In this document: in pieces, positions 1,358 through 48,757 of the stretch | Numbering within the stretch: the first letter of the stretch is position 1 | How the letters are laid out: every line of letters begins with the position of its first letter | Assembly: GCA_023447635.1 (NCBI GenBank) | Contig: JAEXNA010000219.1 | Coordinates: 27,678-91,677 of the forward strand | From: Vulcanimicrobiota bacterium | GTDB taxonomy: Bacteria; Vulcanimicrobiota; Xenobia; Xenobiales; JADMJV01 | Length of the DNA stretch: 64,000 nt | Direction: 5' to 3' | The notes under the pieces: model-generated | The model's database searches: none | Told to the model about the DNA's origin: nothing | Seen by the model: the letters and a program-made list of their open reading frames with translations, nothing else | Program-made: the position numbers and the translations under genes

Positions 1358-1475
1358 CGTAAAAGGCACGCCACAGACGGCGTGGCTGACCTACCGCTTT
1401 CTCGATACCCCGGAAAAGAAACCCACTAAAGACGGCGGTTCTCCTCGCGCGGAGCGAATCCCCCTAAAATAAGGG

Positions 1476-15466: not shown

Positions 15467-15480
15467 GATGGGTCCTTTGT

Positions 15481-15519
15481 CTTGTCAGGAAAAACAAGCC
15501 CGGGCCCCGCGGGGCCCGG
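15481..15519 (-). terminator. intrinsic-terminator-like element between pfaA stop and pfaC start (GC hairpin plus U-tract)
   Basis: On the minus (sense) strand, a perfect 20-nt palindrome CCGGGCCCCGCGGGGCCCGG lies 7 nt after the pfaA TAA. It is followed by GCTTGTTTTTCC. A second small hairpin (CTTGT...ACAAG) sits beside it. Confidence 0.35.
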
Positions 15520-15526
15520 ACCGGGG

Positions 15527-18500: not shown

Positions 18501-21500
18501 CCGGCCGGGGTCATCGCTTCCACGATTTCGCCCAGGGTGTGCAAGCTGCCGAGACGGTCGCTGTCCACCTTGGGAAGGCCGGGCATGGCTTCTTCCACGG
18601 AGGCCAGGATTTCAACCCGCTTGATGCTGTCGATCCCCAGGTCGGACTCCAGGTCCATCTCCAGGGTCAGCATATCCACCGGGTAACCGGTTTTCTCGGC
18701 CACCACGTTCATCAGGGCGCGGGCCACTCCGGTGGCACCAAGGCCCATGGCGGGGGCAGAGTGGGAGGCGGCGGCGGGCGCCGAAGCGGTGGAAGCGGGA
18801 ACGCCTGCGGCCGGGGTCATCGCGGCCACGATCTCGCCCAGCGTGCGCAGGCTGCCGAGACGGTCGCTGTCCACCTTGGGAAGACCGGGAACGGCTTCTT
18901 CCACGGCGGCCAGAATCTCGACGCGCTTGATGCTGTCGATCCCCAGGTCGGCTTCGAGATCCATCTCCAGGTTGAGCATCTCGGCCGGGTAGCCGGTCTT
19001 GTCGGCGACCACCTTGAGCAGTGCGCCGGAGACGGCTCCGGAGGGAGCTGCGGAGGAGGCGGTGGGAGCGGAAGCGGTGGGAGCGGAAGCGGGAAGTCCG
19101 CCGGCCGGAGTCATCGCGGTGACGATCTCGCCCAGCGTGCGCAGGCTACCGAGGCGGTCGCTGTCCACCTTGGGCAGCCCGGGAACGGCTTCCTCGACGG
19201 CGGCCAGGATCTCGACGCGCTTGATGCTATCGATACCGAGGTCGGCCTCCAGGTCCATCTCCAGATTCAGCATCTCTACGGGGTAGCCGGTTTTGTCGGC
19301 CACCACCTTGAGCAGAGCGCTCGAAACCGCTCCAGAGGGAGCCGCAGAGGCAGCGGGAGCAGCAACGGGAGCGGCCGCTTTGGGTAGTCCGCCGGCCGGG
19401 GTCATCGCGGTCACGATCTCGCCCAGCGTGCGCAGAGCGCCCAGACGGTCGCTGTCCACCTTGGGAAGGCCGGGAACGGCTTCTTCGACGGCGGCCAGGA
19501 TCTCGACCCGCTTGATGCTGTCGATGCCCAGGTCGGCTTCGAGATCCATCTCTAGATTCAGCATCTCCTGGGGGTAGCCGGTCTTGTCGGCGACGACCTT
19601 GAGCAGCGCCTTCGAGACCGAATCGTCGGCCACGCCGCTGCCCAGCACCTGGTCGACCGGCGAGGCCACCGAGGCGATAGCGGGGGTGTGAACCTTCACC
19701 GGTGCCGGTGCCGGTGCCGGTGCCGGGCGGGCCGCCACAGGGGCGGGAGCCGCAGCGGCCGGGCGTGCCGGAGGGGCAACGGGAGCCGGCGCGATGGGGC
19801 GCGCGGGCGCCGCAACGACGGGAGCCGAAGACACGGGAGCCGGAGCTACGGGGCGAGCCGGGGCGGCAGGAGCAGCGGCGTGCTGCGCGGCCTGACCGGC
19901 CAGCAGCGCACCCAGAGCGCTCTGAGCCGCTTCCTGGCTTTTCAGGAACTGCTGATGGACCTGAGCCGTCTGGCGTGTCAGCTCTTGCAGCGCCTCGAGG
20001 TGAGGCAGCAGGCTGTCCAGAGCCGCCGGAGCGGCCACGGGAGCGACAGGGCGCTGAGGCGCCGGGGCCTGGGCAGGAGCCTTGGCTGCAGCTACAGAGG
20101 ACGGAGTCGGAGCAGCTGGAGCGGGAGCCGCCGGACGAGCCGGAGGGGTCGCTGGCAGGCTGACCGTAGCTTTGGCTACCGCAGGAGCGCTGTGAGCCGC
20201 CGGAAGAGCCGCCTTTACGACGGGAGCTGCAGCGGGAGCGGCGCTCTTGACGCCAACCGAATTGGGCTCGCGCACGGGCGGCTTCTTGCCGTTGCCCGAG
20301 CGGTAGTTGGCGCCCGAGATCGGCACCGTCATGCGGCGCTTGGCTTCGGCGGCGGGCTTCTCTTCCCACTGCGCCAGCTCGACCGGTAGACCGGCGGCCG
20401 CCAGTTCGGCAAGAGCCGTGGCAAGGTCCAGCAGTCCGCTTTTCTTGCCTACCGAGCGGTCCATCGGAACCACCTTGATGTCGCTCTTGTCTTTGAGGAT
20501 CGCCTTGACCAGACCGGTCAGCACCGTCTTCGGGCCCACCTCGATGAAGGTGCGGAATCCGTCGGCGTACATCTTCTCGATCAGGCCCACGAAGTTGACC
20601 TGGTGCACCAGCTGGTCGGCCAGCAGAGCCCGGGCGGTCTTGCCGCTGGCGGGATACAGCTCGGCGGTCTTGTTGGCGTAAACCGGGATTTCGGACTTGT
20701 TGAACTTGACCTTACCGGCCACCTTGTGGAACGGGTCGCGAGCGCCCGCTACGAAAGAGCTGTGGAAGGCGGCGCCGACTTTGAGCGGCACGCCGCGCAG
20801 GCCGGCCTTCTTCAGCTCGGGGGCCAGCGCTTCGAGGTCCTTGGCGGAGCCGCTCAGCACGCACTGGTCCGGAGAGTTACGGTTGGCCAGAACCACGGGA
20901 GTCTTGGTCTCGGCCAGAACCTGCTCGACCTTGTCCAGGGTGCCCTTGACGGCCATCATGGTGCCCAGGTCGTCGCCCTGCGAGGCCATCAGGCGGCCGC
21001 GCTCGCGGGACAGCTCGACCAGGCCCTCCCCGTCCAGGACGCCGGCGGCGTACAGGGCGGACAGCTCGCCGTAAGAGTGACCGGCGGTGCCTTCCGGCTT
21101 GAGGCCGAAGCGCTCGAGCAGGTGGAAGTAGCCGCGCTCCATCACGCCCAGAGCGGGCTGGGCGCGGTCGGTGGCGGTCAGGAAGTCGCCCTGGGCGGCT
21201 TCTTCGGCCTTGTCGAACACGGGCACCGGGTAGATGGCGTGAGCGATGTCGCGACCGGTGGCCTCCAGCGACTCGAGCAGTTCGGGGAAGGCGCAAGCCA
21301 GGTCCACGCCCATGTTCACATACTGCGAACCCTGACCGGGGAAGAGGAAGGCGACCTTGCCGTTGTCGGCGCTGCCCGACGAGGAAAACTCGGAGGCTTC
21401 GCCCTTCTTTAGCTTGTCCAGAGCGGCCGTCAGCGCGCTCGCGAAGTCGTCGGACAGCGCCGGCACCACCAGGCGGTGAGCATCGGCGCGGTTGAACGAC

Positions 21501-23047
21501 TGGCGGGATTCCCAGGCGATCAGCGAGGAGTGGCGGCTGTCGTCGAGGGCGCCCTGCACCTTCTTGATCAGCTCGTCCTTGGATCCGGCCGAGAAGGCGG
21601 CCAGTTCGACGCTGCCGTCCCAGGCCGTATCCTTACGCTGAGCGCCGTACTCTTCGAGCACCAGATGGAAGTTGCTGCCGCCGAAGCCGAAAGAAGACAG
21701 TCCGGCCCGGCGAGGGTGATCGGGGTGCGAGACCCAGGGGCGGCTGATGGTGTTCAGATAGAACGCGCTGTCTTCGATGCCCAGCTTGGGGTTCGGCTTG
21801 GTGATGTTGATGGTGGGCGGGAAGATCTTGTAGTGCAGCGCGAGAGCCGCCTTGATCAAGCCAGCCGAACCGGCGGCGGCTTTGGTGTGCCCGATCTGGG
21901 ACTTCACCGAACCCATGGCGCACCAGTTTTTGTCGCTGGAAACCTCGCCATAGACGGTCTTGAGCCCTTCGAACTCGACCACGTCACCGACCTTGGTTCC
22001 GGTACCGTGGGCTTCCACCAGCTCTACCGTGCGGGGCGAAACTTCGGCGTTCTCGTAAGCGCGGCGCAAGGCGCGAGCCTGTCCGTGCGACATCGGAGCG
22101 TAGACCGCGCCGCCTTTCCCGTCGCTGGCCGTTCCGACGCCGCGGATCACGGCGTAGATCTTGTCGCCGTCACGCTCGGCGTCGGCCAGGCGCTTGAGTA
22201 CGACCATGCCCAGGCCTTCACCCAGCATGGTGCCGTCGCTTTCGGCGTCGAACGGACGGATCTTCCCGGAGGCTGACAGGGCGGGCGTCTTCGAGAAGCA
22301 CATGAACATGAAGATGTCGTTGAAAGTGTCGGTACCGCCGGTGATCACCATGTCGGCCTGACCGGTCTGCAGTTCCAGGAACGCCAGGTGAGCCGCCGAC
22401 AGGGTCGAGGCGCAGGCCGCATCGACCACGCAGTTGGTCCCGTGCAGGTCCAGGCGGTTGGCGATACGTCCGGCGACCACGTTACCAAGCAGACCGGGGA
22501 ACGAGTTCTCCTGCCAGGGCACGTAGTCGGCCGAGATGCGCTGCATGACCTCTTCCACCAGCTCCGGGCCCAGGCCCGACTCTTGCAGCGCCTTCTTCCA
22601 GTAGGGGTGGCCCAGGCGAGCGCCCAGCGGAACCACCAGTTCGAGAGTGCCGGTGACACCCAGGATGACCGAGGTGGTGCTGCGGTCGAACTCGCGGTCC
22701 GGTCCATAACCGGCGTCTTCCAGGGCCGCCTTGGCAGCGACCAGACCCAGCAGCTGCGAGGTGTCGGTCGCCTCCAGCGCGGTGGGCGGCATGGAGAACT
22801 CTGTGGGGTCGAAAGGATAGGGATCCAGGAAGCCGCCGCGGCGACAGTAGGTCATATCCGACGCCTTCTGGTTGGCGTCGAAGTAGTCGTCCGGACTCCA
22901 ATGGGTGTCCGGGATCTCCGAAATGGTGTCAGTGCCGAGTCGAAGGATCTTCCAGAAAGACTTCAGGTTGTTGGCCTTCGGATAGAGGGCCGACATGCCC
23001 ACGATGGCGATGTCGGTTCTCTGGGACTGAGCGGGAGCGTTCTTCAT
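15527..23047 (-). CDS. pfaA: PUFA-synthase-type PKS subunit PfaA-like: KS-MAT-6xACP-KR-DH
   Basis: KS (DAACASTLSAAHLAF, EAHGTGTKVGD, GHTKAAAG). MAT (FLFPGQGSQYVNMG, GHSYGELSALYAAG). Six tandem ACPs, each with the LGIDSIKRVEIL phosphopantetheine-site motif. KR (VVLVTGGARGVTAACAIA). C-terminal PKS-type DH. Confidence 0.9.
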   Translation of the reverse strand: MKNAPAQSQRTDIAIVGMSALYPKANNLKSFWKILRLGTDTISEIPDTHWSPDDYFDANQKASDMTYCRRGGFLDPYPFDPTEFSMPPTALEATDTSQLLGLVAAKAALEDAGYGPDREFDRSTTSVILGVTGTLELVVPLGARLGHPYWKKALQESGLGPELVEEVMQRISADYVPWQENSFPGLLGNVVAGRIANRLDLHGTNCVVDAACASTLSAAHLAFLELQTGQADMVITGGTDTFNDIFMFMCFSKTPALSASGKIRPFDAESDGTMLGEGLGMVVLKRLADAERDGDKIYAVIRGVGTASDGKGGAVYAPMSHGQARALRRAYENAEVSPRTVELVEAHGTGTKVGDVVEFEGLKTVYGEVSSDKNWCAMGSVKSQIGHTKAAAGSAGLIKAALALHYKIFPPTINITKPNPKLGIEDSAFYLNTISRPWVSHPDHPRRAGLSSFGFGGSNFHLVLEEYGAQRKDTAWDGSVELAAFSAGSKDELIKKVQGALDDSRHSSLIAWESRQSFNRADAHRLVVPALSDDFASALTAALDKLKKGEASEFSSSGSADNGKVAFLFPGQGSQYVNMGVDLACAFPELLESLEATGRDIAHAIYPVPVFDKAEEAAQGDFLTATDRAQPALGVMERGYFHLLERFGLKPEGTAGHSYGELSALYAAGVLDGEGLVELSRERGRLMASQGDDLGTMMAVKGTLDKVEQVLAETKTPVVLANRNSPDQCVLSGSAKDLEALAPELKKAGLRGVPLKVGAAFHSSFVAGARDPFHKVAGKVKFNKSEIPVYANKTAELYPASGKTARALLADQLVHQVNFVGLIEKMYADGFRTFIEVGPKTVLTGLVKAILKDKSDIKVVPMDRSVGKKSGLLDLATALAELAAAGLPVELAQWEEKPAAEAKRRMTVPISGANYRSGNGKKPPVREPNSVGVKSAAPAAAPVVKAALPAAHSAPAVAKATVSLPATPPARPAAPAPAAPTPSSVAAAKAPAQAPAPQRPVAPVAAPAALDSLLPHLEALQELTRQTAQVHQQFLKSQEAAQSALGALLAGQAAQHAAAPAAPARPVAPAPVSSAPVVAAPARPIAPAPVAPPARPAAAAPAPVAARPAPAPAPAPVKVHTPAIASVASPVDQVLGSGVADDSVSKALLKVVADKTGYPQEMLNLEMDLEADLGIDSIKRVEILAAVEEAVPGLPKVDSDRLGALRTLGEIVTAMTPAGGLPKAAAPVAAPAASAAPSGAVSSALLKVVADKTGYPVEMLNLEMDLEADLGIDSIKRVEILAAVEEAVPGLPKVDSDRLGSLRTLGEIVTAMTPAGGLPASAPTASAPTASSAAPSGAVSGALLKVVADKTGYPAEMLNLEMDLEADLGIDSIKRVEILAAVEEAVPGLPKVDSDRLGSLRTLGEIVAAMTPAAGVPASTASAPAAASHSAPAMGLGATGVARALMNVVAEKTGYPVDMLTLEMDLESDLGIDSIKRVEILASVEEAMPGLPKVDSDRLGSLHTLGEIVEAMTPAGDLQPQLTAHAAPATGVPATDPGVAKALMVVVAEKTGYPVDMLTLEMDLESDLGIDSIKRVEILASVEEALPGLPKVDSDRLGSLHTLGEIVEAMTPKGIAPAAAAPAAPAAPAASGGGDASGVTAALLAVVAEKTGYPQEMLNLEMDLESDLGIDSIKRVEILASVEEVMPGLPKVDADRLGSLRTLGEIVVAMTPAGGAAAAHVVAPTVVAAPPAARTISRQCLQLIDLGPGQASGLPLPEGAVLAVLEDTPGLGDELVGALQSRGVEVEKVEAGSALPANLGALVLVGNGGDGQRSREFLMTAFQRTREAAPALRKSGGALFTVTTLDGSFGLKGKAFDPFIGGLAGLPKTVAHEWPEVFTRAIDRHPEITVETVLEELMKDGPVEVALSPGRRETLVTATAQASAGAPRLGKKDVVLVTGGARGVTAACAIATARAYGSKFVLLGRTPLEGPDFDLYPGIEDEGALKREIMQRQFGGKATPKDLQGVANKVAAQREMQGTLAAFAEAGVEAVYLACDVRDKDGLKAGLAEVQKQLGAITTLIHGAGVLADRKIEDKTDEMFQSVFSTKIDSLLILNELLPDLKTMLFFSSVTARFGRPGQVDYCMANEVLNKFAQLESRRRPRCTMVAMGWGPWAGGMVTPALAREFERIGVGLIPLEAGAQAVVDELSHHGAGQAEVLFGDGFPEPVSPKPRTSSSSEGQSGGGEQLLQKAISVSALPFLDSHKLKGQPVLPMAFMMEWFTQGALLSGAGMRLVGLDDLRVFRGVTVSGGVEPTLAVSVVSTKVVDGRTHATLELKDTGRNALHARATVVLGDAQDSAPAPFDPAPLSTRSYSHSPDAIYSELLFHGPDFHAVSGVSGISEGGLVAELKSAGKPAEWERDPLRSDWATEPLVVDGVLQLGILWCWDGLGKPSLPNGFAHYRQFVNRYPKSGVKAVLKVVSHSDRALVADCDLIDAKGNLLGRFERLEWTADDALKAAFGLSGALAR
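17890..19630 (-). repeat. six tandem ~290-bp ACP-encoding repeats within pfaA
   Basis: The peptide xxALLKVVADKTGYPxEMLNLEMDLEADLGIDSIKRVEILAAVEEAVPGLPKVDSDRLGSLRTLGEIV recurs six times. The repeats also show up as a ladder of near-identical spurious plus-strand ORFs (17841.., 18210.., 18426.., 18732.., 18999.., 19293..). Confidence 0.85.
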
Positions 23048-23092
23048 GGATCTCTGGTTCCTCTTATGGATTTCGATGGTAAGGGACGGCGG

Positions 23093-24727
23093 TTACGAGA
23101 AGTAGGGCGCGAGTTCGGCGTCCGTTTTGGGGCGGAACTCCTGCAGCTCGTGACTCAACGGCACGCCCTGCTGACGCAAGGCGTGGACCCGGCCCAGATA
23201 AGCGGCGCCGGCGAGAATATTACGGGCGACCACGCCCGCTTGGCGAGCCTTCGGCTCGGCCAGATAGCTGTCGCCGACCCACTGGTTGAAGGCGCCCATG
23301 GCGGGACCGCACCAAACCTGGTAGTCGACCTTGCGGTCGGCGATACCCGAGTTGGCCCAGCCCGAGGCGCGGCCGAGGTAGGAGCGGAAGACCAGTGCCA
23401 TCTTGTGTTTGGGGTCGGCGGCGGCGCGCTGGTTCTGGCGCGGGTCGCGACCTTCGAAGAATTTGTGGGTGTCGGCCCAGACTTCGTCGAGGGTCTGACG
23501 GAAGAAGGTCTTCTCCAGCACGGCGCGCTCGGAGGCGGGCAGCTCTTCCATAGAGCCGTAGTCGCGGTAAAGCTGATACAGCTTCTTGGCGCGCACGGGG
23601 AACATAGTGCCCCACTTCAGCACCTGGACCTGAACGCCCATTTCGAACATATCGGCGGCAGGCGCCATCGCCATGTCGGCTTGTCCGGCTTTGCACAGCA
23701 TCTCGCGCACGATATCAGAGCTTCCCGACTCGAGGCAGGACTGGTTGACGCTTCCGGTCAGAATGTAAGAAGCGCCCATCGCAAAGGCGGCACAGGCCGA
23801 GGCCGGGGTCGAGATACCGCCGGCAGCGCCAACCCGCAGCACCACGCCGCGGTCGCCGTACAGCTTCTGCTTCTCGTCGCGCAGAGCGATCATGGTAGGA
23901 AGCAGAGCCAGAGCCGGGCGGTTATCGGTATGTCCGCCGGAATCGGCTTCGGCCGTCAGGTCTTCGACCACCGGCATCAAGGCGGCAAGTTCCGCCTGTT
24001 CGGGGGTCAGGTCGCCGCGCTGCACCAGTTCGCGCAGCATCTTCTCGGGCGGCGGAGCGAAAAACTTCTCGGCCACCTCGACGCGAGACACCTTGCCCAG
24101 CACCTGCTGGCGCATCACGATCTCGCCGTTGTCGTTGCGCGAGATGCCGTGGAAACGGTACTTCAAGAGCGGGAGCGTCAGACCCAGGTAGGCCGAGGCG
24201 CTGACCCGCTTGACCCCTTTGCGAAGGTAGAGATCGACGATCCCCTCTTCCAGGTCGGGCTCGTTGGGCGAGTGGATCAAGTTCGAGCCGAACGGCTTGT
24301 CGCCCAGGCTCGCTTGCAGGCGGTCGATCGATTTCTCGACCACGTGCAGCGGAAGTCCGGCGGCGCCGAACACGCCCAGCGTGTTGGCCTCGGCGGCGGC
24401 CTGGACCAGTTCGACCGAGGTGATGCCGTTGGCCATCGCCCCGACCACATAGGAGTAGTCGACTCCGTGGGCCTTCCGGAACGAGGCGTCGCCCAACCCC
24501 GCGGGGGTCAGTGAAGGCAAGAAGCCGGCAAAGGTCCAGCCGTCTCCATCGCCTGCGCCCAGTTCGCCCTTGTCCACAGGGGCCAGCGCGATCTCATCGC
24601 CCTTGCGCACCACGAAATAGGATTCGCCCAGAGACTGCAGCCCCTGTCCTAAACCCTCTTGTCCTTGTAGCAGAGCGCTCGTGTCGCCCCTCCAACCCAA
24701 CTTCGCCGTCATACTCAAAACGTCCAT
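23093..24727 (-). CDS. pfaD: PfaD-like FMN-dependent trans-acting enoyl reductase (2-nitropropane-dioxygenase-like)
   Basis: PfaD hallmarks: ...LGWRGD... near the N-terminus, VGAMANGITSVELVQAAAEANTLGVFGAAGL, and a TIM-barrel ER core. The track ORF extends to 24817, but the first ~30 aa look arbitrary. ATG at ~24727 (MDVLSMTAKLGW) or ~24712 gives the usual ~540-aa length. Confidence 0.85.
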   Translation of the reverse strand: MDVLSMTAKLGWRGDTSALLQGQEGLGQGLQSLGESYFVVRKGDEIALAPVDKGELGAGDGDGWTFAGFLPSLTPAGLGDASFRKAHGVDYSYVVGAMANGITSVELVQAAAEANTLGVFGAAGLPLHVVEKSIDRLQASLGDKPFGSNLIHSPNEPDLEEGIVDLYLRKGVKRVSASAYLGLTLPLLKYRFHGISRNDNGEIVMRQQVLGKVSRVEVAEKFFAPPPEKMLRELVQRGDLTPEQAELAALMPVVEDLTAEADSGGHTDNRPALALLPTMIALRDEKQKLYGDRGVVLRVGAAGGISTPASACAAFAMGASYILTGSVNQSCLESGSSDIVREMLCKAGQADMAMAPAADMFEMGVQVQVLKWGTMFPVRAKKLYQLYRDYGSMEELPASERAVLEKTFFRQTLDEVWADTHKFFEGRDPRQNQRAAADPKHKMALVFRSYLGRASGWANSGIADRKVDYQVWCGPAMGAFNQWVGDSYLAEPKARQAGVVARNILAGAAYLGRVHALRQQGVPLSHELQEFRPKTDAELAPYFS

Positions 24728-24817
24728 TCCACCGCCACGATTCCTAGCGACAGACCTCGCGAAGCGGCATGAAGCCGCGCCCAGGTCCATGCCGTTCCCT
24801 TTTGGGGAGGTCGGCAC

Positions 24818-26915: not shown

Positions 26916-28121
26916 ATGAACATCCTCAACTCGGTACCCGGACTGAACATCATGCGCGGCAAGCAGGTCTCCCGTCGCGACCGCTACCGCTCCGAGTTGA
27001 AGGTCTCCGAGCAAGACCGTAAGGACCATCTGGCCATCGACTGGAACGCCGCCCAGACCCCGTCGCAACTGGTGAAACGTGAGGGCGACAAATACACGCT
27101 TTCGAATTTCCGCTGGGGCTTCAACGAAGATCCCAAGGTCAAGTCGACCGATTGGGCCCCGATCCACGCTGAAACCACCATCGACGCCTCGAAGGTCAAA
27201 GAGGTGTACTTGGCGCTCGAACCCTTCGAGCCCGAGATCGTGGCTGGCCACGGCCTGCTAGTGTTCGAGATGGAAGACGGCAGCGCGGTCCAGAGCGCCG
27301 ACGGACGCGAGGACTTCGGATTCGCGCTCTCCATCGAAGCTCGCCTGCCCAAAGGACAGGAGTACGGCCTGTTCACCGGGATGAAAAAGAACTTTGGAAT
27401 GCTCTACCAGATGGGCTCGCTTTCGGACCAGCTGCAGAAAGTCAGCCGCCAGCGTGGACACAAACTGATCATGCACCGCCTGGAGCTGGACAAAGAGCAG
27501 AAAGAGAAGCTGGTGCACGACGGCCTGAACGCGGCCACCGAAGACCGCCTGGGTGAGTGGTACCACACCTTGACCAACTCGTGCTACACCGGCGGGGTCG
27601 ACCTGATCAACGACGTGGTGCCGGAATCCCAAAAGATGGCTCGCTGGAGCAAACATCTGAAGTTTGCCCGCCTGGCCACCGCTCTGCCCGTGCTGGAAGG
27701 CGCCACCCTCAAGCAAAAGGGCCTGCTGGCCGACGAGCCGATCCTCTCGCTACAGCCGAACGCCGAACTTTACCCTGACGAACAGACCAAAGTGAGCAGC
27801 CTGCAGGCCAACCTGGCCGAAGTCAGTCGCTCGGGCTTCTTCAAACCGGGCCTGCAGTTGGCCGGAGCGGGAGTTGGGGGGGTGGCCGGATACGCTATCG
27901 GCAACAGCTTTGGCTCCGTAGGCGCCCTGATCGGCGCGGGAGCCGGCGCCTTGACCGGATTGTGGGCCGGCGACCGCACCGCCGACATCGTGGCTACCAA
28001 GGCCGACCAGAAGCCGGTCGACGCTCAAGCCTGGTACGCCGCCAAAGGCGGACTGAGCCTGGAAGAAGCGACCGCCCGCCTGAGCAACTCGTCGGCGCCG
28101 GTCGCCTTGATGGCCTCCTGA
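26916..28121 (+). CDS. hypothetical protein with C-terminal glycine-zipper segment
   Basis: 401-aa ORF with SD-like AGGGAGAAAG upstream. C-terminal AGAGVGGVAGYAIGNSFGSVGALIGAGAGALTGLWAG is a glycine-zipper-type membrane segment. The motif HTLTNSCYTGG is present. No confident family. Confidence 0.55.
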   Translation: MNILNSVPGLNIMRGKQVSRRDRYRSELKVSEQDRKDHLAIDWNAAQTPSQLVKREGDKYTLSNFRWGFNEDPKVKSTDWAPIHAETTIDASKVKEVYLALEPFEPEIVAGHGLLVFEMEDGSAVQSADGREDFGFALSIEARLPKGQEYGLFTGMKKNFGMLYQMGSLSDQLQKVSRQRGHKLIMHRLELDKEQKEKLVHDGLNAATEDRLGEWYHTLTNSCYTGGVDLINDVVPESQKMARWSKHLKFARLATALPVLEGATLKQKGLLADEPILSLQPNAELYPDEQTKVSSLQANLAEVSRSGFFKPGLQLAGAGVGGVAGYAIGNSFGSVGALIGAGAGALTGLWAGDRTADIVATKADQKPVDAQAWYAAKGGLSLEEATARLSNSSAPVALMAS

Positions 28122-32795: not shown

Positions 32796-35689
32796 CCACG
32801 CCCCTCGACCACGGTAATACGTGAGGAAGGCAGCTTCAGCGGCACACGCGCCCCGGTGGCTTTGTCGAAAATTTCCAACTCCAGATCATAGGTGCCCAGT
32901 CGCCAGGGCGCGGTGATGTTCCACCGAAGACCCTGGGTCCCTCCCTGATCCAATCGTAAAAGTAGGGGGGTCGAGACACGGTCGAGTTCCCACACATAGT
33001 CCGCGTCGACCTGACGAATTCGGGTCAGCAGTTCCAACTCTCCCTGGCTGTCCACCGCCTGTTCCGAGTTCAAGGTCAGACGCAGCGGCACGAAGCCCTT
33101 CGGAGGCACATCGCCGGGAGTCTCCAGCGTCGCCACCAGTCCCTCTAACCGCTTCTGCAGCGAAAGGTTCAGGGGGAAATCGAAAATCTTTTCTCCCCCG
33201 GCCGGCCCGGTCATCAACTCGCCCACGACCCGGAAGTCGCCTTCCACGATGGGAGTCACGAAGACCACGTCGTGCAGGTCTCCGGTTCGGGAGGGTAGCG
33301 GGTTCACCCCGAGCAGGTAGAACAGCGGATCGGTAGCGTCGCGTCCGTCCCCGTCGACCACCCGAATCCGCAGCCAGCCCAGGCGCGCCGATCGGTCCCG
33401 CGGGTTGAAAGCCGAAACTCGAAGGCCGTAAGGCTGACCACAGCGCCACTCCCGCGAGCCCAGAGCGGCTAACGGGCGAGTCTTGCCGGCCTCCAAAAAC
33501 AGCGTTTGGGTGCGAAAAGGCGGTTGAGAAGCCAGCCGGGAGACGGCCAGCGAAGGCGGGGGGTCCAGTCGCCACAGTTCGCGGGTTCGTCCGTCCGGGT
33601 CGACCTCTCGGCCCGCCAACAGGGCGTGGGGCGAGCGCACCAGCGCCTCGTCGAGAGCGCTACCCTTGGGGTCCAGAGTCAGCCAGTCGATCTCGCTGTT
33701 CCAAAGCAGATCGGGTCGCCCGCTCGCCGTCAACGCTTTTTCCAGACTGGACCGGTGGTAGTTGGGATGGGCGTGCAGTCGCCGTCCCTCCGGGGGATGA
33801 GCCCGACCCGCCATGCGCGCTCCGGTCAGCGCTGACACTACACAGTCGGGCCAGAGACCAAGGGGCGACTCCGAGCCCAGGTTGGTCAACACGGTCTCGC
33901 CGGGCAAGATCTGACCCGCCAGTCGATGAGCCAGACGCAGGTCGGCGGGACCGACCCCCAACTCGGGTCGGGCCGCCCGCCAGTCATCGGCGTAGAACGA
34001 AGGCCAACCGTGCTTTTGAATCTCGATGATCGCGCCGTTGACCATTTTCTCACCCGGCCAGAGCGCAAAAAACAGCAGCGTCCAGCCCAGAGCGACCAGG
34101 GCCGCCTTGCGGGTCAGGGTAACCTCTAAAGCGCCTTCGTCCGTTCTGCGCAGGCGACCCCATCCCGGCGTCTCGATCAGACTGCCGCAGAATAGACCCA
34201 GCGGGACCGCCAGGGCGAAGCCGGCGGCGAACTCCCAGCGGAAGTACTCCCATTCGTAAACCGGACCGAAATCGATCAAGCCCGGAACCAGATACGCGCA
34301 AGCTCCGAAAGCCCAGAAAGCCAGCCCCGGCCAATGCCGCCGCCGAAGACACCAGGCCAGGGTCAGGGGGGCCAGAAAAACCGGCAGCCAGTGGGTGGCC
34401 AGCAGAGCCGGCGAGAAGATGTTGACGTACCCTTCCCCTTCGATCGAAGGGGTCAGGTCCCGGAACGGGTCGAGCCGAAAGCCGGGCGAGATACGAGTGT
34501 ACTCGGCGGCAGTCGCCAGCACGCAGAACAGGTCCTTCTTGGGAAACTTCATGCTGACGTGCTGACCCTTGTTGGTGTCGGACTGCGAGGCCGCCCCCGT
34601 CGTCCGACGAGAGCGAACCATATCGGTGATCGGACCGCCTTCCGTGCAGGCCAGCAGCAGCGCTACACCGACCGTGACGGCAACGCTTGTCAGCAGTCGC
34701 CTGCGGTTCTTGCTGACCTGCCAGGCCGGAATCAGCAAGACCAGGCCAGTCAGCAGAAACAGACCGAAGTGGGTCTCATAGACCAGCTGATACGTCCCTA
34801 GCAGATACCCAGCCACGCAGCCCAGCCCCACGGGGTTGCCCGGCCGCTCGGTGGGCAGCAGGTCGAAAACACGGAGCATCACGTAAAAGAGCAGAACCGC
34901 CAGGACATAAACCAGCCCGTTGTTGCCGTCAAAACAGTCGGCCAGACCGATCCGGAAACCGACGCAAGCGCCAAAAAACGGCATGGCCAGAGCGGCCAGC
35001 GTGCTTGCCGCGCCGTCCCCCCAGCGCCGAAAGATAGCCAGCAAGACGCCGCAGCAGCTCAGGGCTAGCAAGGGGTTCAGCCACCATACCGGGAGCAGAG
35101 GGTCCCAGCCCCTGGGAAGCAAGGTTCCGATCAGGAGATCGCGACCGTAGTGGCCATGCATCTCGACCTCGGGAAAAAACGGGTGAACGGGCGGGAAGAT
35201 GCCCAGGGTGTAGCCGGCGATCAGCGGTTCGTGAATCCAGTTGTCGGTGTCGAGCAAAAAAAGCTGGGCGAAGACTACATAGCCCACCACCGCGACCACC
35301 AGGAGCGCCAGCGTGAACAGCCAGGCCCGCCCCGGCATCCGCCTTGACCCCGAGGAAGCCACCTCTGGCGTCGCTTCACCGCCCCCGTCTATCGCGGCGG
35401 CTCCTTCGAGCGGCGATCCTTCCGGTTTGTCGCCGCCGCCAGGTCGGCCGCGACGAAGCGCAGACCAGTCGAGCAGCAAGAGCAGACCTAGCCCACCCGA
35501 CAGGAACAGTGTGGGCCAGCGCCCCTGAACCGGCCCCCAAAGGTTGGCGCCGCCGATGATCACCAGGCAGGCGATCAGAGGAGCCAGACTTATCGCCTCC
35601 CAGGCGCGCTGGGCGCCCAGGAATCGGCGACTGACTCCGTAGCCAAAAAGGACCGCGGAAGCAAAGAGAAGGAGCGAGACAGGCATGGG
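32792..35689 (-). CDS. polytopic membrane protein, GT-C-like putative glycosyltransferase with periplasmic C-terminal domain (paralog 2 of 4)
   Basis: DNWIHEPLIAGYTLGIFPPVHPFFPEVEMHGHYGRD, DCFDGNNGLVYVLAVLL, YETHFGLFLL, WEYFRWEFAAGFALAV. ~500-aa C-terminal soluble region. The track start at 35773 adds 28 non-hydrophobic residues. ATG at ~35689 (MPVSLLLFASAVLF) looks more natural. Confidence 0.7.
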   Translation of the reverse strand, partial: PMPVSLLLFASAVLFGYGVSRRFLGAQRAWEAISLAPLIACLVIIGGANLWGPVQGRWPTLFLSGGLGLLLLLDWSALRRGRPGGGDKPEGSPLEGAAAIDGGGEATPEVASSGSRRMPGRAWLFTLALLVVAVVGYVVFAQLFLLDTDNWIHEPLIAGYTLGIFPPVHPFFPEVEMHGHYGRDLLIGTLLPRGWDPLLPVWWLNPLLALSCCGVLLAIFRRWGDGAASTLAALAMPFFGACVGFRIGLADCFDGNNGLVYVLAVLLFYVMLRVFDLLPTERPGNPVGLGCVAGYLLGTYQLVYETHFGLFLLTGLVLLIPAWQVSKNRRRLLTSVAVTVGVALLLACTEGGPITDMVRSRRTTGAASQSDTNKGQHVSMKFPKKDLFCVLATAAEYTRISPGFRLDPFRDLTPSIEGEGYVNIFSPALLATHWLPVFLAPLTLAWCLRRRHWPGLAFWAFGACAYLVPGLIDFGPVYEWEYFRWEFAAGFALAVPLGLFCGSLIETPGWGRLRRTDEGALEVTLTRKAALVALGWTLLFFALWPGEKMVNGAIIEIQKHGWPSFYADDWRAARPELGVGPADLRLAHRLAGQILPGETVLTNLGSESPLGLWPDCVVSALTGARMAGRAHPPEGRRLHAHPNYHRSSLEKALTASGRPDLLWNSEIDWLTLDPKGSALDEALVRSPHALLAGREVDPDGRTRELWRLDPPPSLAVSRLASQPPFRTQTLFLEAGKTRPLAALGSREWRCGQPYGLRVSAFNPRDRSARLGWLRIRVVDGDGRDATDPLFYLLGVNPLPSRTGDLHDVVFVTPIVEGDFRVVGELMTGPAGGEKIFDFPLNLSLQKRLEGLVATLETPGDVPPKGFVPLRLTLNSEQAVDSQGELELLTRIRQVDADYVWELDRVSTPLLLRLDQGGTQGLRWNITAPWRLGTYDLELEIFDKATGARVPLKLPSSRITVVEGRG

Positions 35690-35846
35690 TACCCCGGCCG
35701 GTTCTGTTCCGCCCTTCTCGCCCCTGCTTCCACCCTCAATCCCCTGGCACGCACCTGTACGGCGAGGGGGCATACCGCAGGCCTACCCGGGTGGGGAATT
35801 CCCGAGCGGGGCGAGGAAGCTTCCGGAGGTTGGAGAATGTCGCCAT

Positions 35847-37004
35847 GTGGCGAAAGAGAGAACTCGGCAGGAACGGTTTGCCCGGCGCGATGTGACTCTA
35901 TCCCCCGTCGATGAACTGAAGCTTCAGCTTCAAGCGTTCGTCGGCAAGGGCGAGCGGCGCTATAAGGTTTCCGGGGAAGAGCTAACGATCTTCACCCGCC
36001 AGTTGGCCACCATGCTCGGGTCCGGCATCGCCCTTCACCAGGCGCTGCTCTACTACGGAGAGACCAGCGAGGGCGACCTGCCGCTGATCATCCGCAAAGT
36101 CGCGCTCGATGTCGCCAGTGGACATACCTTCTCGAACGCCATGCGGGCGTTCCCCCTGGTCTTCTCGCCGATCTACATCGCCCTGGCCGAAATGGGCGAA
36201 CAGTCCGGCCAGATCGTTTCCGCCTATCGCCGTCTGGCCGATCTGATGGAGCGACAGACCAACATGCGCAAGAAGGTCGTTTCCGCCCTGACCTACCCTT
36301 GCGTGCTGATGGTCGTGTCGATGAGCGCCATTGTGGGGTTCGTCTACTTCGTGCTGCCGATGATGACACCGATGTTCGAAAACATGGGGGTCGAGTTACC
36401 GCTTCCTACCCGGATGTTACTCTCCACCCGGGTCGTCGTGCCGACCTTGAGCATCCTGGCCGTACTGGCCCTGTTCGGGATGTGGCTGGCCAAGCCGTGG
36501 ATCAAAATCTACTTGCACAGCCATCCCGACAAACTACGACAGGTGCACGCGCTGCCGTTCTATCTCCCGGTGATCAGCGGCATCTATTCCAAACTGGCCA
36601 CCGCCCGCATCCTGTACTCCATGGCCACTATGCTCGACGCCGGCCTGACCATGACGGCCACCATGAAACGAGCCGCCATGGCGTCCGGCAACCAGTTCAT
36701 CGCTTTTCGCCTGAACAAAGCCACCGAGAGCGTCATGGAAGGCGCCTCGCTGGCCGAAGCGCTCTCGATCTACGAGGTCTTTCCCAACACCGCCATCCAG
36801 ATGCTGGCCGTGGGCGAGGAGTCGGCCAACCTGTCGAACATGGTAACCCACATCGCCAATCTCTACGATTCGGAAGTCGAGGTCGCCCTCAACGATATCG
36901 CCTCGGTGATCGAGCCGATTATCATGATCGTCATGGGCGGCGTCGTCGGCTTCATCGTGCTGGCCGCCGTCTTGCCGACCGTCCAGCTGATCCAGAACCT
37001 GTAG
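35847..37004 (+). CDS. type II secretion / type IV pilus platform protein family (GspF/PilC-like, two T2SSF domains)
   Basis: ELTIFTRQLATMLGSGIALHQAL...PLVFSPIYIALAEMGEQSGQI and a second repeat TARILYSMATMLDAGLTMTATM...FPNTAIQMLAVGEESANLSNM, with 3 TM segments. The track ORF (35685) overlaps the divergent upstream gene. The in-frame GTG at ~35847 lies after a GGAGG, though spacing is long; the true start is uncertain. Confidence 0.75.
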   Translation: MAKERTRQERFARRDVTLSPVDELKLQLQAFVGKGERRYKVSGEELTIFTRQLATMLGSGIALHQALLYYGETSEGDLPLIIRKVALDVASGHTFSNAMRAFPLVFSPIYIALAEMGEQSGQIVSAYRRLADLMERQTNMRKKVVSALTYPCVLMVVSMSAIVGFVYFVLPMMTPMFENMGVELPLPTRMLLSTRVVVPTLSILAVLALFGMWLAKPWIKIYLHSHPDKLRQVHALPFYLPVISGIYSKLATARILYSMATMLDAGLTMTATMKRAAMASGNQFIAFRLNKATESVMEGASLAEALSIYEVFPNTAIQMLAVGEESANLSNMVTHIANLYDSEVEVALNDIASVIEPIIMIVMGGVVGFIVLAAVLPTVQLIQNL

Positions 37005-46084: not shown

Positions 46085-46525
46085 CTAGCTCTCTTCGTAG
46101 AGGTCGAGGCTGTCGATCAGCGCCTGCAGGTCGGCCGGGCTTAGCCCCACACCACGGAAGGCGTGATAGTAAGCGGCGCCTTCTTCTTCCGGGAACCAGT
46201 CGCTGGCCACTTCGGCTCGTTCGTCCTCGCGAAAGCTGTGCAGGATGAACTGGCCAAAGGCCGGATGCTCGACCACTTTTTGCATGTGGTCGGTCTCGCC
46301 CGGGATAGTGTCGCCCAGTCCGCCGTCCGTCGTCATCACCGACCAACGAGCGTCCTCGGGGCCTTGAAATGGGATCTCGACCGAGGTGTCTCCGTCGTCG
46401 ATGTCGTGGTAGGTCTCGAAAGGCTGGAGGCTCCAGCCGGGGGGCAGCTGCTGAGGTAAGGCGACAGGAAAAGGGAGCTGCCGAAGCTGCTCCCTTGCTC
46501 CGTCGCTGAGATAACTAAAACTCAT
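46085..46525 (-). CDS. hypothetical acidic protein (possible immunity/partner of the upstream CHAP-like protein)
   Basis: 146-aa ORF, 24 bp downstream of the Met-rich/CHAP-like gene on the same strand. No motif recognised. Confidence 0.45.
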   Translation of the reverse strand: MSFSYLSDGAREQLRQLPFPVALPQQLPPGWSLQPFETYHDIDDGDTSVEIPFQGPEDARWSVMTTDGGLGDTIPGETDHMQKVVEHPAFGQFILHSFREDERAEVASDWFPEEEGAAYYHAFRGVGLSPADLQALIDSLDLYEES

Positions 46526-46549: not shown

Positions 46550-47338
46550 TTACCGTCCCTGGGCACCAGGGGTGTCTTTAGGGATAAACACGCGGTAGCG
46601 CGGACCGTAGTTGGTCATCTGGTTGCGAGGCTTGTCGGAGAACTCGTGCCCGTTGCCGTCAGCGATCGAGATGTGACCGTGCTGCTTGCCGCCGCGTCCA
46701 CGGTTGGACGGATCGCGGTCCCACACGACGACGGCGCCGGCCGGCAGGCTACGCAGCTGGTCGCGGCTGACCCGCACTTCGCGGAAGCGGGGGTTGTTGG
46801 CCAGCTGATCGGCGGCCTGATAGGCCGATCCGCCCTGAAGGTTGACGCCGACCTGACGCAGGTGGTGCTTTACGCCGCGGTAGCAGTAGCCGGGGCAGCA
46901 GCCGGGGGGCACGGGAGAGTTGCGCATCGACTGGAGCAGACGCTGTCCGGTGGGACCAGCGCCGCGCATCGAACCGATATCGGTCATCGGGCCGTTGGAC
47001 ATCGGCCAGCTTCCACCGAATCCGCCACCGCCCATATCGTAACCGCCGCCTCCGGGGAAGGGCATAGGCATCGGCATCGGCATCATTCCGGGCATGCTGG
47101 GCATCCCCATACCGAAACCCTGGCCCATGCCCTGTCCACATCCGCAGTTCCCGGCGTGGTCCATGCCGTTAGGCATCACGCCGCCCATGCCGTTCATTCC
47201 GCCCATCATCATCTGCATCATTTGCATCATCTGCATCATCTGCATCATCATGAACATACTGCTCATCATGTTGCCGCCGCCGCCCATCATCATGGGGCCG
47301 GCCATCATCATCATGGGGTTGAACTGCATAGCTGCCAT
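46550..47338 (-). CDS. Met/Gly/Pro-rich low-complexity protein with Cys-rich segment and C-terminal CHAP/NlpC-like domain
   Basis: N-terminal 130 aa are ~35% Met (MMQMMQMMQMMQMMMGG, MPMPMPMPFPGGGG). Then CGCGQG...CCPGYCYRGVKHHL, LPAGAVVVWDRDP and GHISIADGNGHEFSD. This spacing is like the Cys...hydrophobic strand...GH(V/I)xI of CHAP amidases. No signal peptide. Confidence 0.55.
   Translation of the reverse strand: MAAMQFNPMMMMAGPMMMGGGGNMMSSMFMMMQMMQMMQMMQMMMGGMNGMGGVMPNGMDHAGNCGCGQGMGQGFGMGMPSMPGMMPMPMPMPFPGGGGYDMGGGGFGGSWPMSNGPMTDIGSMRGAGPTGQRLLQSMRNSPVPPGCCPGYCYRGVKHHLRQVGVNLQGGSAYQAADQLANNPRFREVRVSRDQLRSLPAGAVVVWDRDPSNRGRGGKQHGHISIADGNGHEFSDKPRNQMTNYGPRYRVFIPKDTPGAQGR
47205..47250 (-). 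repeat. tandem 9-bp repeat (CATCATCTG)n encoding (MMQ)n
   Basis: Plus strand reads catcatcatctgcatcatttgcatcatctgcatcatctgcatcatcat, ~5 units with one variant (TTG). Confidence 0.8.
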
Positions 47339-47422
47339 GGAACGCTCCTCGAGGAATCTTTTAGTCTGTCGTACAGTGGTGTAGTCTGGTGATTATAGCT
47401 TATCTCCCACCTGTGTCGCATC

Positions 47423-48757
47423 ATGACAAGGGGTCTCGTCAAAGTTTTCGAAAAAATGTTTACAAGCATGCTCCACGACCGCGCCAACGCCTTTGCCGTC
47501 AAGGATTTCGCCTCCGAGATCAAGCAGATCGACCAACTGCTCGAACACCTCGAGGACGGAACCGGGACGGCCTATCTGCAACCTCTGTTCGAAGAGATCG
47601 ACCATATCTTGGGTCAGCTCTATGCGATCTACCTCAACGAGCTTCAGTTTCTGGCTGCCGGAGAGCCGCAGAACGTCGCGGCCAATCAGATCGCTCGCGA
47701 CTTCACCGAAGTGCGACCAGTGATCGCGCAGCTCCGCAACGAGCTAAGCTTGGGCGAAGGCGACCGCTGCCTGGACACGACGCGAGAGCTCAAGACCGTG
47801 GTTGGTCGACTTTTCGGCTCTTTCGCCGATCTGCGCTCCCAGGCCCAGCAAGGGCCTCGCTATTCCGAGCTTCCGTTCACTCAGGAGCTGCTGCGGGTGG
47901 TGCACCACTACCTGGACGGCAACCTGGGCGTCAACGCGGTACAAGAGCGACTGGACGCTTTCTGTAACTATCACGACAACCTGGAACTGTCGTTCGAGCA
48001 GATGATCCCGACCGACGCCGAGGCGCCCATCCTGGAAGCCCGGCAAGAGGATCTGGAAGAGGCGCTGGCGCTGCAGTTGCAAGGGATCGAAGACCTGGAT
48101 GTCGCCCTCGAGCGACGCTCGGACAAAGCCGTGATCAAGGCCGCCGAAGCGCTGAAAGTGGCAGCGGAAACTCTGCACGAAATCTATCTGGAACTCCAGG
48201 CCGCCGAAAACGAGCCCGACACCGTCTCTTGCTTCCGCTGCGGGGCCAGCAACCGGGCGGACCAGCGACTTTGTTCCGGCTGCGGCGCGGTGCTCCCCCG
48301 CTTCGACGCCAGTGACAAGCGGGCCCCTTCTATCGAGATCAAAGAAGGCACCGCCCCCAGCGCCGCCGGCAAGCCCGATGAGCTTCTCAAGCTAGAGCGG
48401 GCTGTCGAAGTTGCGCTTCGCAACGGCGATAACGCTTCATTGCACGACGCTTTAGACGGATTCGAAAGCCGCCTCAAAGGGGTCGAGAAACGGCTGGGAG
48501 GGCTCAAAGAGCCGCCTTCGGACATCCCCGCCGACCATCTGGATCTGCTGCGCGAAGGACGCTCTCGTTTCGAGGAGGCGGTCGAGATGCTGGCGGAAGG
48601 TCACGCTATCCTGCGCGATGGAGCCGACGGGCTGGACGCCAACACCTTACGTCGAGGTCTCGACGAAATCGAGGCGGGGTATCAATCGCTGTTCGACTTT
48701 GGCGAACTGTACGAGCAGGCGGAAAAGGTCTCGCCCCCCGTAGGTAAGCGGACCTAA
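47423..48757 (+). CDS. hypothetical helical protein with internal zinc-ribbon (CxxC...CxxC)
   Basis: 444-aa ORF. Mostly predicted helical/coiled. CFRCGASNRADQRLCSGCG zinc ribbon near residue 285. Confidence 0.55.
   Translation: MTRGLVKVFEKMFTSMLHDRANAFAVKDFASEIKQIDQLLEHLEDGTGTAYLQPLFEEIDHILGQLYAIYLNELQFLAAGEPQNVAANQIARDFTEVRPVIAQLRNELSLGEGDRCLDTTRELKTVVGRLFGSFADLRSQAQQGPRYSELPFTQELLRVVHHYLDGNLGVNAVQERLDAFCNYHDNLELSFEQMIPTDAEAPILEARQEDLEEALALQLQGIEDLDVALERRSDKAVIKAAEALKVAAETLHEIYLELQAAENEPDTVSCFRCGASNRADQRLCSGCGAVLPRFDASDKRAPSIEIKEGTAPSAAGKPDELLKLERAVEVALRNGDNASLHDALDGFESRLKGVEKRLGGLKEPPSDIPADHLDLLREGRSRFEEAVEMLAEGHAILRDGADGLDANTLRRGLDEIEAGYQSLFDFGELYEQAEKVSPPVGKRT

Follow-up and report, generated by a model that had tools for sequence, protein, structure and literature searches.

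A methionine-rich leader on a putative peptidoglycan hydrolase of Vulcanimicrobiota, with a candidate inhibitor-like partner encoded beside it

The locus and its catalytic domain

The window, by which we mean the whole 64,000-nucleotide stretch of Vulcanimicrobiota DNA analysed here, encodes on its minus strand a 262-residue protein in which a methionine-rich leader precedes a domain of the NlpC/P60-CHAP type. A small acidic protein, hereafter partner A, is encoded directly downstream, and a zinc-ribbon protein is encoded divergently on the other side. The features are as follows:

46550..47338, minus strand: whole coding sequence, 262 aa, Met-rich leader plus NlpC/P60-CHAP (Tae3-like) hydrolase domain (ORF listing, composition, GC3, homologues)
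47345..47350, minus strand: GAGGAG ribosome-binding site, 6 nt 5′ of the ATG (read from the sequence)
47392..47419, minus strand: promoter-like site GCGACA-16-TATAAT, a consensus match only (consensus scan, 10/12 matches)
46988..47338, minus strand: leader, residues 1–117, rich in Met, Gly and Pro (composition, homologue conservation, leader profile)
47201..47263, minus strand: Met/Gln helix, residues 26–46 (SSMFMMMQMMQMMQMMQMMMG), the best-conserved core of the leader (structure model, alignment)
47207..47249, minus strand: 9-nt tandem repeat (CAGATGATG, coding strand) encoding (QMM)n, 4.8 copies (TRF, 94% matches)
47138..47146, minus strand: Cys65-Gly66-Cys67 motif, often His-flanked, conserved in the Met-rich subfamily (consensus GGCGCG, leader alignment)
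47061..47084, minus strand: 6-nt repeat encoding the MPMPMPMP tract (TRF; tract conserved in close homologues)
46574..46987, minus strand: catalytic domain, residues 118–255, papain-like NlpC/P60-CHAP fold
46883..46885, minus strand: codon of Cys152, predicted nucleophile (invariant in 73 sequences; aligns with Cys23 of Tae3)
46673..46675, minus strand: codon of His222 in the GHISI motif, predicted catalytic base (invariant; aligns with His81 of Tae3)
46085..46525, minus strand: partner A, 146 aa, pI ~4.1, no signal peptide, Mog1/PsbP-like fold
47423..48757, plus strand: divergent 444-aa acidic all-helical protein with a central CxxC..CxxC zinc ribbon (neighbour clustering, Pfam/PDB)

The hydrolase ORF starts with an ATG, in the ORF listing as in the sequence itself, and an in-frame TAA lies 54 nt 5′ of it, which excludes a longer N-terminus or a hidden signal peptide. 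GC3 of the ORF is 0.81, equal in both halves, and resembles that of the other genes (0.77) rather than that of two overlapping shadow ORFs (0.57–0.60), so the frame is right. A His-rich ORF on the plus strand (46646..47392) is the antisense image of the ATG run. GC3, together with more than 100 homologues bearing the same leader, also rules out an artefactual frame or a mere repeat expansion.

A sequence-only reading of this DNA had picked out (MMQ)4, MPMPMPMP, glycine runs, CGCGQG, CCPGYCYRG, AGAVVVW and GHISIADGNG, all of which are present, and had described a Cys-rich segment followed by a CHAP/NlpC-like C-terminal domain. The assignment of the C-terminal domain is supported by the fold and by the conservation of C152 and H222. 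The cysteines are there as described, but Cys152 alone is invariant; the CGC at residues 65–67 is kept in close relatives only, and Cys147 and Cys148 are not conserved.

Direct searches with the window protein returned no match in Pfam, NCBIfam, PHROGs or PDB sequences (in Pfam, none at E<=1). Family placement was therefore possible only from structure and family-wide statistics. A search with residues 116–262 gave 162 homologues, mostly of 220–260 aa, whose named sources were Vulcanimicrobiota/Eremiobacterota MAGs. Sub-threshold matches to Pfam CHAP (PF05257) occur at E<0.1 in 66 of 73 relatives, the best at 2e-5, which makes the family a divergent clade beyond the curated CHAP model. The domain adopts a papain-like alpha+beta fold, with the catalytic Cys at a helix N-terminus and the His on a beta-strand, and on this fold and active-site evidence it is a member of the NlpC/P60-CHAP superfamily. 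Five residues are invariant in the 73-sequence alignment (C152, H222, E232, Q240 and R249), and the third polar catalytic residue may be E232 or D235. In structure comparisons a T6SS amidase effector comes closest, and the NlpC/P60 endopeptidases MepS and LytE also appear as neighbours.

Where does the enzyme act? Homologues carry PG_binding_1/3 (P0100), a LysM-like domain (L086) or lipoprotein signal peptides (P0117, P0119, P0120, L069, L076 and L079), and these associations support a peptidoglycan substrate outside the cytoplasm. Several hydrolase paralogues are found per genome.

A conserved leader shared with other wall-lytic enzymes

The N-terminal ~130 residues had been described as about one-third methionine, and they do contain 41 Met (31.5%) along with 34 Gly (26%); residues 131–262 contain 2 Met (1.5%). 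Met averages 1.85% in the 30 other long ORFs of the window, with a maximum of <=13 Met per 130 aa, and relative to them the binomial probability of 41 Met in 130 residues is ~2e-38. The 117-residue leader lacks Lys, Arg and Glu altogether, and D60, H61 and D101 are its sole charged or ionisable residues. In the structure model, residues 26–46 form the only helix and the remainder is disordered, mostly at pLDDT <50. This helix is also the best-conserved element of the leader: it carries Gln at every third position, columns M32–M41 are nearly invariant, Q36 is invariant, and no His/Met loop shows comparable conservation. In most Eremiobacterota homologues the helix follows the pattern MFMMMQMMQMMQMMM and the elements come in the same order, namely an xxFNPMMM start, the Met/Gln helix, GCGC(G)H, MP repeats and a Gly-rich linker. 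The Met-rich N-terminus is a conserved feature and not lineage-specific junk. The possibility, raised in the sequence-only reading, that orthologues lack the region thus does not hold: it is conserved and it is portable.

Can the leader be a conventional export signal? Its best 19-residue window scores a Hessa dG of +7.7 and a KD of 0.61, which is neither transmembrane nor signal-peptide grade, and the features of classical Sec, Tat and lipoprotein signals (charged n-region, h-region, cleavage site, lipobox, RR) were not found in it. The earlier view that the protein has no signal peptide is thereby upheld, both by the upstream in-frame stop and by the lack of Lys and Arg in residues 1–117. 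The host does employ classical signals, since the neighbouring EEP protein of the window has an ordinary lipoprotein signal with a normal lipobox. Three other export routes were considered and rejected: (i) a lipobox at AGNC/AGC before the CGC is too distant from the helix, lacks a Leu at −3 and is missing in most members; (ii) flagellar export, suggested by MNININ starts that resemble flagellin, would apply to just 28 of 181 full-length members, and the cultured relative Vulcanimicrobium alpinus has neither flagella nor a flagellin gene (PMC9758169); and (iii) a double-glycine leader with a PCAT (GNFLGG motif) finds no C39/ABC transporter among the recurrent neighbours, and the window protein carries GNFLGG in a degenerate form.

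In distant family members a helix is retained at the equivalent position with altered chemistry. P0043 and P0058 have a Leu/Gly-rich version, and UBP9 genomes encode a charged, amphipathic one of Lys/Met type (DVMKQLDQMFSKQMKSMNDLLKKMLG). Where homologues come from other phyla, the place of the leader is taken by a lipoprotein signal peptide or a peptidoglycan-binding domain.

The leader is found beyond this hydrolase family. A profile built from hydrolase leaders alone scored two GH19 proteins at 50.7 and 42.8 bits, against a maximum of −8 among 200 composition-preserving shuffles. Both proteins are encoded just upstream of a hydrolase gene (in loci L001 and L010), and their GH19 domains are endolysin-like (phrog_181, E 1e-33). 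An exhaustive HMMER search of 1.84 billion representatives with the leader profile added an SLT lytic transglycosylase (P0145) in a total of 5 proteins, which leaves the extent of the leader family thinly sampled; the small number reflects the penalty that bias correction and database size place on a profile of low complexity. A DUF459 protein and a weak Amidase_5 match also have Met-rich, leader-like N-termini, whose homology to the leader is not statistically established. On these profile matches, the leader is a portable N-terminal module on several kinds of wall-lytic enzyme in Eremiobacterota. Since one leader serves several wall-lytic domains, and since other phyla put signal peptides or wall-binding domains in its place, we infer a role in targeting or export. 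A literature search found no description of a Met-rich leader on wall hydrolases.

Partners, neighbours and possible functions

The small acidic ORF that had been noticed 24 bp downstream is confirmed: partner A starts 24 nt past the hydrolase stop codon and has a pI of ~4.1. A profile of partner A, iterated with the CHAP (hydrolase) genes masked, placed it directly downstream of the hydrolase in 16 related loci plus the window, and convergent with it in 3 more. The gaps range from −4 to +24 nt, with an overlap of 1 or 4 nt in many loci. No signal peptide was found in any of 20 aligned partners (0/20), and a GGxGD loop and a Trp are invariant. By sequence, partner A weakly matches DUF4245 alone; its best structural match is a T6SS immunity protein, and the fold is equally that of Eag chaperones. 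A second acidic protein, partner B (108–111 aa, pI 4.1), stands behind another paralogue subfamily at gaps of −1 to +4 nt. Among 86 loci of the hydrolase family, partner A is present in 18 and partner B in 6. Partner B looks unrelated to partner A and weakly resembles a helical unit of the zinc-ribbon neighbour.

Which part of the hydrolase would partner A bind? Partner A co-occurs with Met-rich, Leu-rich and Lys-rich leader types, its invariant residues unchanged, and thus tracks the catalytic domain rather than the leader. Many leader-bearing paralogues lack partner A, and orphan copies of partner A occur without a hydrolase (L088 and L089). Because three leader types, partner-less leader enzymes and orphan partners all occur, binding to the catalytic domain is favoured over binding to the leader.

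Unbiased clustering of every ORF across the 86 loci identified the zinc-ribbon protein (~430 aa) as the commonest linked neighbour, in 20 of the 86 loci at a median distance of 122 bp. Its gene adjoins different hydrolase paralogues within the same genomes, either divergently or directly downstream. The window protein is 42% identical to its counterpart in L001, and searches of Pfam and PDB returned only generic zinc-ribbon matches. In the libraries searched, none of the leader, partner and zinc-ribbon families has a curated entry. The window hydrolase itself is a positional orthologue, conserved across species beside the RNase G, EEP-family and zinc-ribbon genes. A Vulcanimicrobiota copy, L002/L018, comes immediately behind mreB-mreC-(148 aa)-PBP2-RodA, a linkage found in that lineage only; mre genes, which RNase G and L002 would lead one to expect, were not found within the window.

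The sequence-only interpretation is thus supported in part, and we would revise it as follows. The reading that we find best, at about even chances, is that of a peptidoglycan hydrolase targeted by its leader and accompanied in the cytoplasm by an inhibitor-like partner. The hydrolase would be a cysteine peptidoglycan amidase or endopeptidase, closest to the Tae3 clade and presumably acting through the Cys152/His222 pair. In front of it stands a ~115-residue uncharged Met/Gly/Pro-rich leader with a 21-residue Met/Gln helix as its core. This leader may guide the enzymes that carry it to the wall, or to or through the cytoplasmic membrane, by some means other than the classical signals (Sec, Tat or lipoprotein). 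Partner A, translationally coupled and with its Mog1/PsbP fold, would most likely bind the catalytic domain in the cytoplasm and keep the hydrolase inactive in the producer, a putative interaction in which partner A serves as an immunity-like safety catch. The zinc-ribbon protein may be a further cytoplasmic component. More tentatively, the Met/Gln-helix leader could be the recognition signal of an undescribed non-Sec route shared by the Tae3-like amidase, the GH19 muramidase and the SLT transglycosylase, with the co-duplicating zinc-ribbon protein and the small acidic partners as dedicated cytoplasmic handling factors.

Could the gene pair instead be an interbacterial or predatory weapon? The sequence-only reading had likened the arrangement to an effector-immunity pair, and a leader-tagged arsenal of lytic toxins with cognate immunity proteins is a possibility that we regard as doubtful without dismissing it. 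The nearest structures are a T6SS amidase effector for the hydrolase and a T6SS immunity protein for the partner; several paralogues per genome exist in amidase, muramidase and lytic-transglycosylase versions; distinct paralogue subfamilies have distinct acidic partners; orphan partners occur; and a related lineage, UBP9, has been proposed to be predatory (PMC9259500). A conserved adjacent partner does exist. However, T6SS genes (hcp, vgrG, tss; PAAR/prePAAR) were absent from the annotated neighbours (window, L001–L005, L087–L089) and from the recurrent clusters, and genes for export machinery, T7SS, CDI or eCIS were absent near every locus examined. The conserved synteny with RNase G, EEP and zinc-ribbon genes is atypical of mobile toxin cassettes, and one hydrolase copy stands behind mreBCD-PBP2-rodA. 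Immunity proteins against a periplasm-acting amidase are normally periplasmic, and the partners have no export signals. V. alpinus, the relative in culture, has a diderm envelope whose thin peptidoglycan lies in the periplasm (PMC9758169), so that the missing export signal of partner A counts against classical immunity. Given that the fold is also that of Eag chaperones, effector-immunity is one of two readings that the arrangement allows.

The second of these readings makes partner A a chaperone of the Eag/DUF1795 type, which would shield the Met-rich helix and hand the hydrolase to a secretion apparatus. We consider this rather unlikely. The Mog1/PsbP-like fold and a gene position beside an effector with N-terminal hydrophobic helices are those of an Eag protein; a prePAAR/PAAR client and specificity for an N-terminal TM region, which also define Eag chaperones, are not evident at this locus. 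The invariant residues of partner A stay constant across Met/Gln, Leu/Gly and charged amphipathic leader helices, many leader paralogues are partner-less, orphan partners are client-less, and PAAR/prePAAR and T6SS genes were not seen.

Alternatively, the hydrolase could be a housekeeping autolysin, a "space-maker" endopeptidase for growth and division of the cell's own wall (in the manner of MepS or LytE/CwlO) that the partner and the zinc-ribbon protein would regulate from the cytoplasm, which we also hold to be somewhat improbable. The copy directly after the mre-PBP2-RodA genes, the orthologous synteny around the window copy and the presence of MepS and LytE among the structural neighbours argue for it. 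On the other hand, there are many paralogues, muramidase and SLT versions carry the same leader, the partner fold is typical of immunity proteins and chaperones, no FtsEX/EnvC-like activator lies nearby, and the mre linkage is confined to one lineage. The synteny and mre data, which point to a housekeeping autolysin, and the multi-paralogue data, which point to a lytic arsenal, pull apart.

That the Met-rich region binds Cu(I) or Ag(I), or scavenges oxidants, so as to protect or regulate the catalytic Cys seems to us quite improbable. The very dense Met, MxM/MxxM spacing throughout and a CGC that is often His-flanked in the Met-rich subfamily would suit such a domain. Nonetheless, no copper-resistance genes are linked (window, loci examined, recurrent neighbours); homologues with the same domain order and partner swap the Met helix for a Leu/Gly- or Lys-rich one and lack the CGC/His; and what is conserved best is a helix in which every third residue is Gln, not a His/Met loop. 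To judge from composition and conservation, metal binding is possible for the Met-rich subfamily; it would not be a family-wide property and is not favoured. Finally, a prophage endolysin with a SAR-type N-terminus, or a mis-called or repeat-expanded frame, is scarcely credible: the lytic domains, a weakly hydrophobic N-terminal helix and a (QMM)n tract that is a young 9-nt tandem repeat could suggest it, but 50,697 phage records gave 0 homologues, 2.9 M viral contigs gave a single distant LysM-type match, PHROGs gave no match, no phage genes lie nearby, and the helix at 26–46 precedes a 70-residue linker and falls short of TM grade, so that a phage or SAR-endolysin origin is effectively refuted.

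Cell-wall hydrolases are dangerous, and their export and control are central to bacterial growth, predation and competition. In a poorly studied phylum, a single uncharged Met-rich leader stands on lytic domains of several kinds, at the place that signal peptides take in other bacteria, and the enzymes are coupled to cytoplasmic acidic partners and to a zinc-ribbon protein. Should this leader prove to be an export or targeting signal, it would represent a new secretion or targeting logic and a simple finder for the Eremiobacterota lytic arsenal; a leader that proved metal- or redox-sensitive or self-assembling would mean a new mode of wall-hydrolase regulation. In both cases, three protein families that lack annotation become open to testing, and with Vulcanimicrobium alpinus there is a cultured relative.

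Comparison with known systems

High Met density and MxM/MxxM spacing are known from Cu(I)-binding segments (CueO, PcoA/CopA, Ctr1) and from Met-rich low-complexity helices (TDP-43, yeast Pbp1). The leader resembles these in composition only, being a Met-rich helix within Gly-rich disorder, and differs from the Cu(I)-binding segments in having neither a family-wide His/Met loop nor a copper context. With SAR endolysins, the window hydrolase shares a weakly hydrophobic, Gly-rich, poorly charged N-terminal helix and the lack of a cleavable signal peptide. The SAR domain, however, is a Sec-inserted TM helix at the extreme N-terminus, encoded in a phage lysis cassette, whereas the helix described here is Met/Gln-rich, internal (26–46), followed by a ~70-residue disordered linker, and encoded on the chromosome outside any phage context.

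The fold of partner A is common to the Mog1/PsbP-fold proteins of T6SS, both immunity proteins (TplEi/Tli4) and Eag/DUF1795 chaperones (EagT6/PA0094, SciW). Tli4 is periplasmic and neutralises a lipase, whereas partner A has no signal peptide; Eag chaperones serve PAAR-linked effectors with true TM helices, whereas the hydrolase has no PAAR domain.

For the hydrolase, the closest comparison is Tae3 of Ralstonia pickettii (PDB 4hz9), although the sequence match to Tae3 (E 0.16) is not significant alone. Tae3 is a ~120-residue stand-alone domain without a leader, in contrast to the 117-residue Met-rich leader found here, and it is tied genetically to the T6SS, of which no genes are in view at this locus. 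Tai3, the immunity protein of Tae3, is periplasmic, unlike the adjacent partner, which has no signal peptide. Since T6SS linkage and periplasmic immunity were sought and not found, we do not file the protein as a Tae3-family T6SS effector. More broadly, the papain-like fold and the Cys-His active site are shared with CHAP/NlpC-P60 hydrolases such as LysGH15, Lys2972, MepS, LytE, CwlO and RipA. Those enzymes rely on Sec or lipoprotein signals or on holins, and on SH3b, LysM or coiled-coil targeting, where the window hydrolase has its Met-rich leader; we know of no CHAP/NlpC-P60 enzyme with such a leader. Relatives of the window hydrolase are fused to PG_binding_1 and LysM, as in the CHAP/NlpC-P60 enzymes.

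Acidic and zinc-ribbon companions of the hydrolase

The gene encoding the NlpC/P60-CHAP (Tae3-like) hydrolase, with its Met-rich leader, has a divergent neighbour:

window 47423..48757 (+), zinc-ribbon protein gene (~430 aa, acidic, helical, central zinc ribbon)

This protein is uncharacterised and matched no known family. We found its family in the window and at related loci L001, L006-L012, L014-L017, L020, L026, L028-L030, L034, L044 and L047, with CxxC..CxxC, R158, R176 and Q218 invariant; the gene and hydrolase paralogues co-duplicate.

A second, very acidic partner family (108-111 aa, pI 4.1) carries the pattern 'MDEEE..LPxQEEDD..LLRAGHNWLQG' and shows weak similarity (blastp E 4e-6) to a helical unit in the zinc-ribbon protein, at residues 141-215 of the window protein. 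Partner A, the acidic Mog1/PsbP-like protein encoded downstream of the hydrolase in the window, also occurs as orphan genes adjoining UvrD, with the hydrolase gene absent within 4 kb in L088 and L089. The same UvrD context is found in the related loci L087, L036, L043, L044 and L047, there with a hydrolase-partner pair.

L020, L026, L029, L030, L034, L038: second acidic partner, ORF directly after the hydrolase, gaps -1 to +4 nt
L088 4001..4426: orphan partner-A gene
L089 833..1255: orphan partner-A gene

Antisense and reversed leader-like sequences

Two further ORFs were noted:

window 46646..47392 (+), His-rich ORF, 248 aa ('HHLHHLHHLHH')
L027 2357..3133 (-), 258-aa protein, elements resembling those of the leader but in reverse

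The His-rich ORF is the antisense shadow of the Met tract, since ATG codons read as CAT on the opposite strand; its GC3 of 0.60 led us to reject it as a gene. In the L027 protein, a glycine-zipper region occupies the N-terminus; HCGCH and then a Met/Gln tract come after it, and 'NININ' lies at the C-terminus.

Host labels and wider neighbourhoods

Eremiobacterota-type loci were found in MAGs whose record titles name Selenomonadaceae, Burkholderiales, Muribaculaceae or Gammaproteobacteria (L006, L009, L012, L019, L020, L049 and others); RNase G in these loci is up to 91% identical to that of the window. The taxonomy labels of these bins are probably wrong.

In L002/L018 (1..6000), one Vulcanimicrobiota paralogue lies directly downstream of an array of mreB-mreC, a 148-aa gene, PBP2, RodA and a signal-peptide-bearing ankyrin-repeat protein. 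Proteins with an Lnb_N domain recur in the wider surroundings of hydrolase loci, and one of them carries a glycine-zipper segment. Type IV pilus/T2SS components lie 5-10 kb or less from some hydrolase copies, a linkage observed solely in closely related loci. The window also carries a PUFA-synthase-like cluster.

window 26916..28121 (+), Lnb_N-domain protein
L024 7550..8680, Lnb_N-domain protein
L014-L016, about 1300..2500, tandem PilT-like ATPases
window 35685..37004, PilC-like T2SSF gene
window 8264..24817 (-), PUFA-synthase-like cluster

This last cluster is of the PfaA/PfaC/PfaD type, with proteins of 2506 aa (KS-AT-6xACP-KR-DH), 2400 aa (KS-KS-3xFabA) and 574 aa (NMO plus a FabD helical insert).
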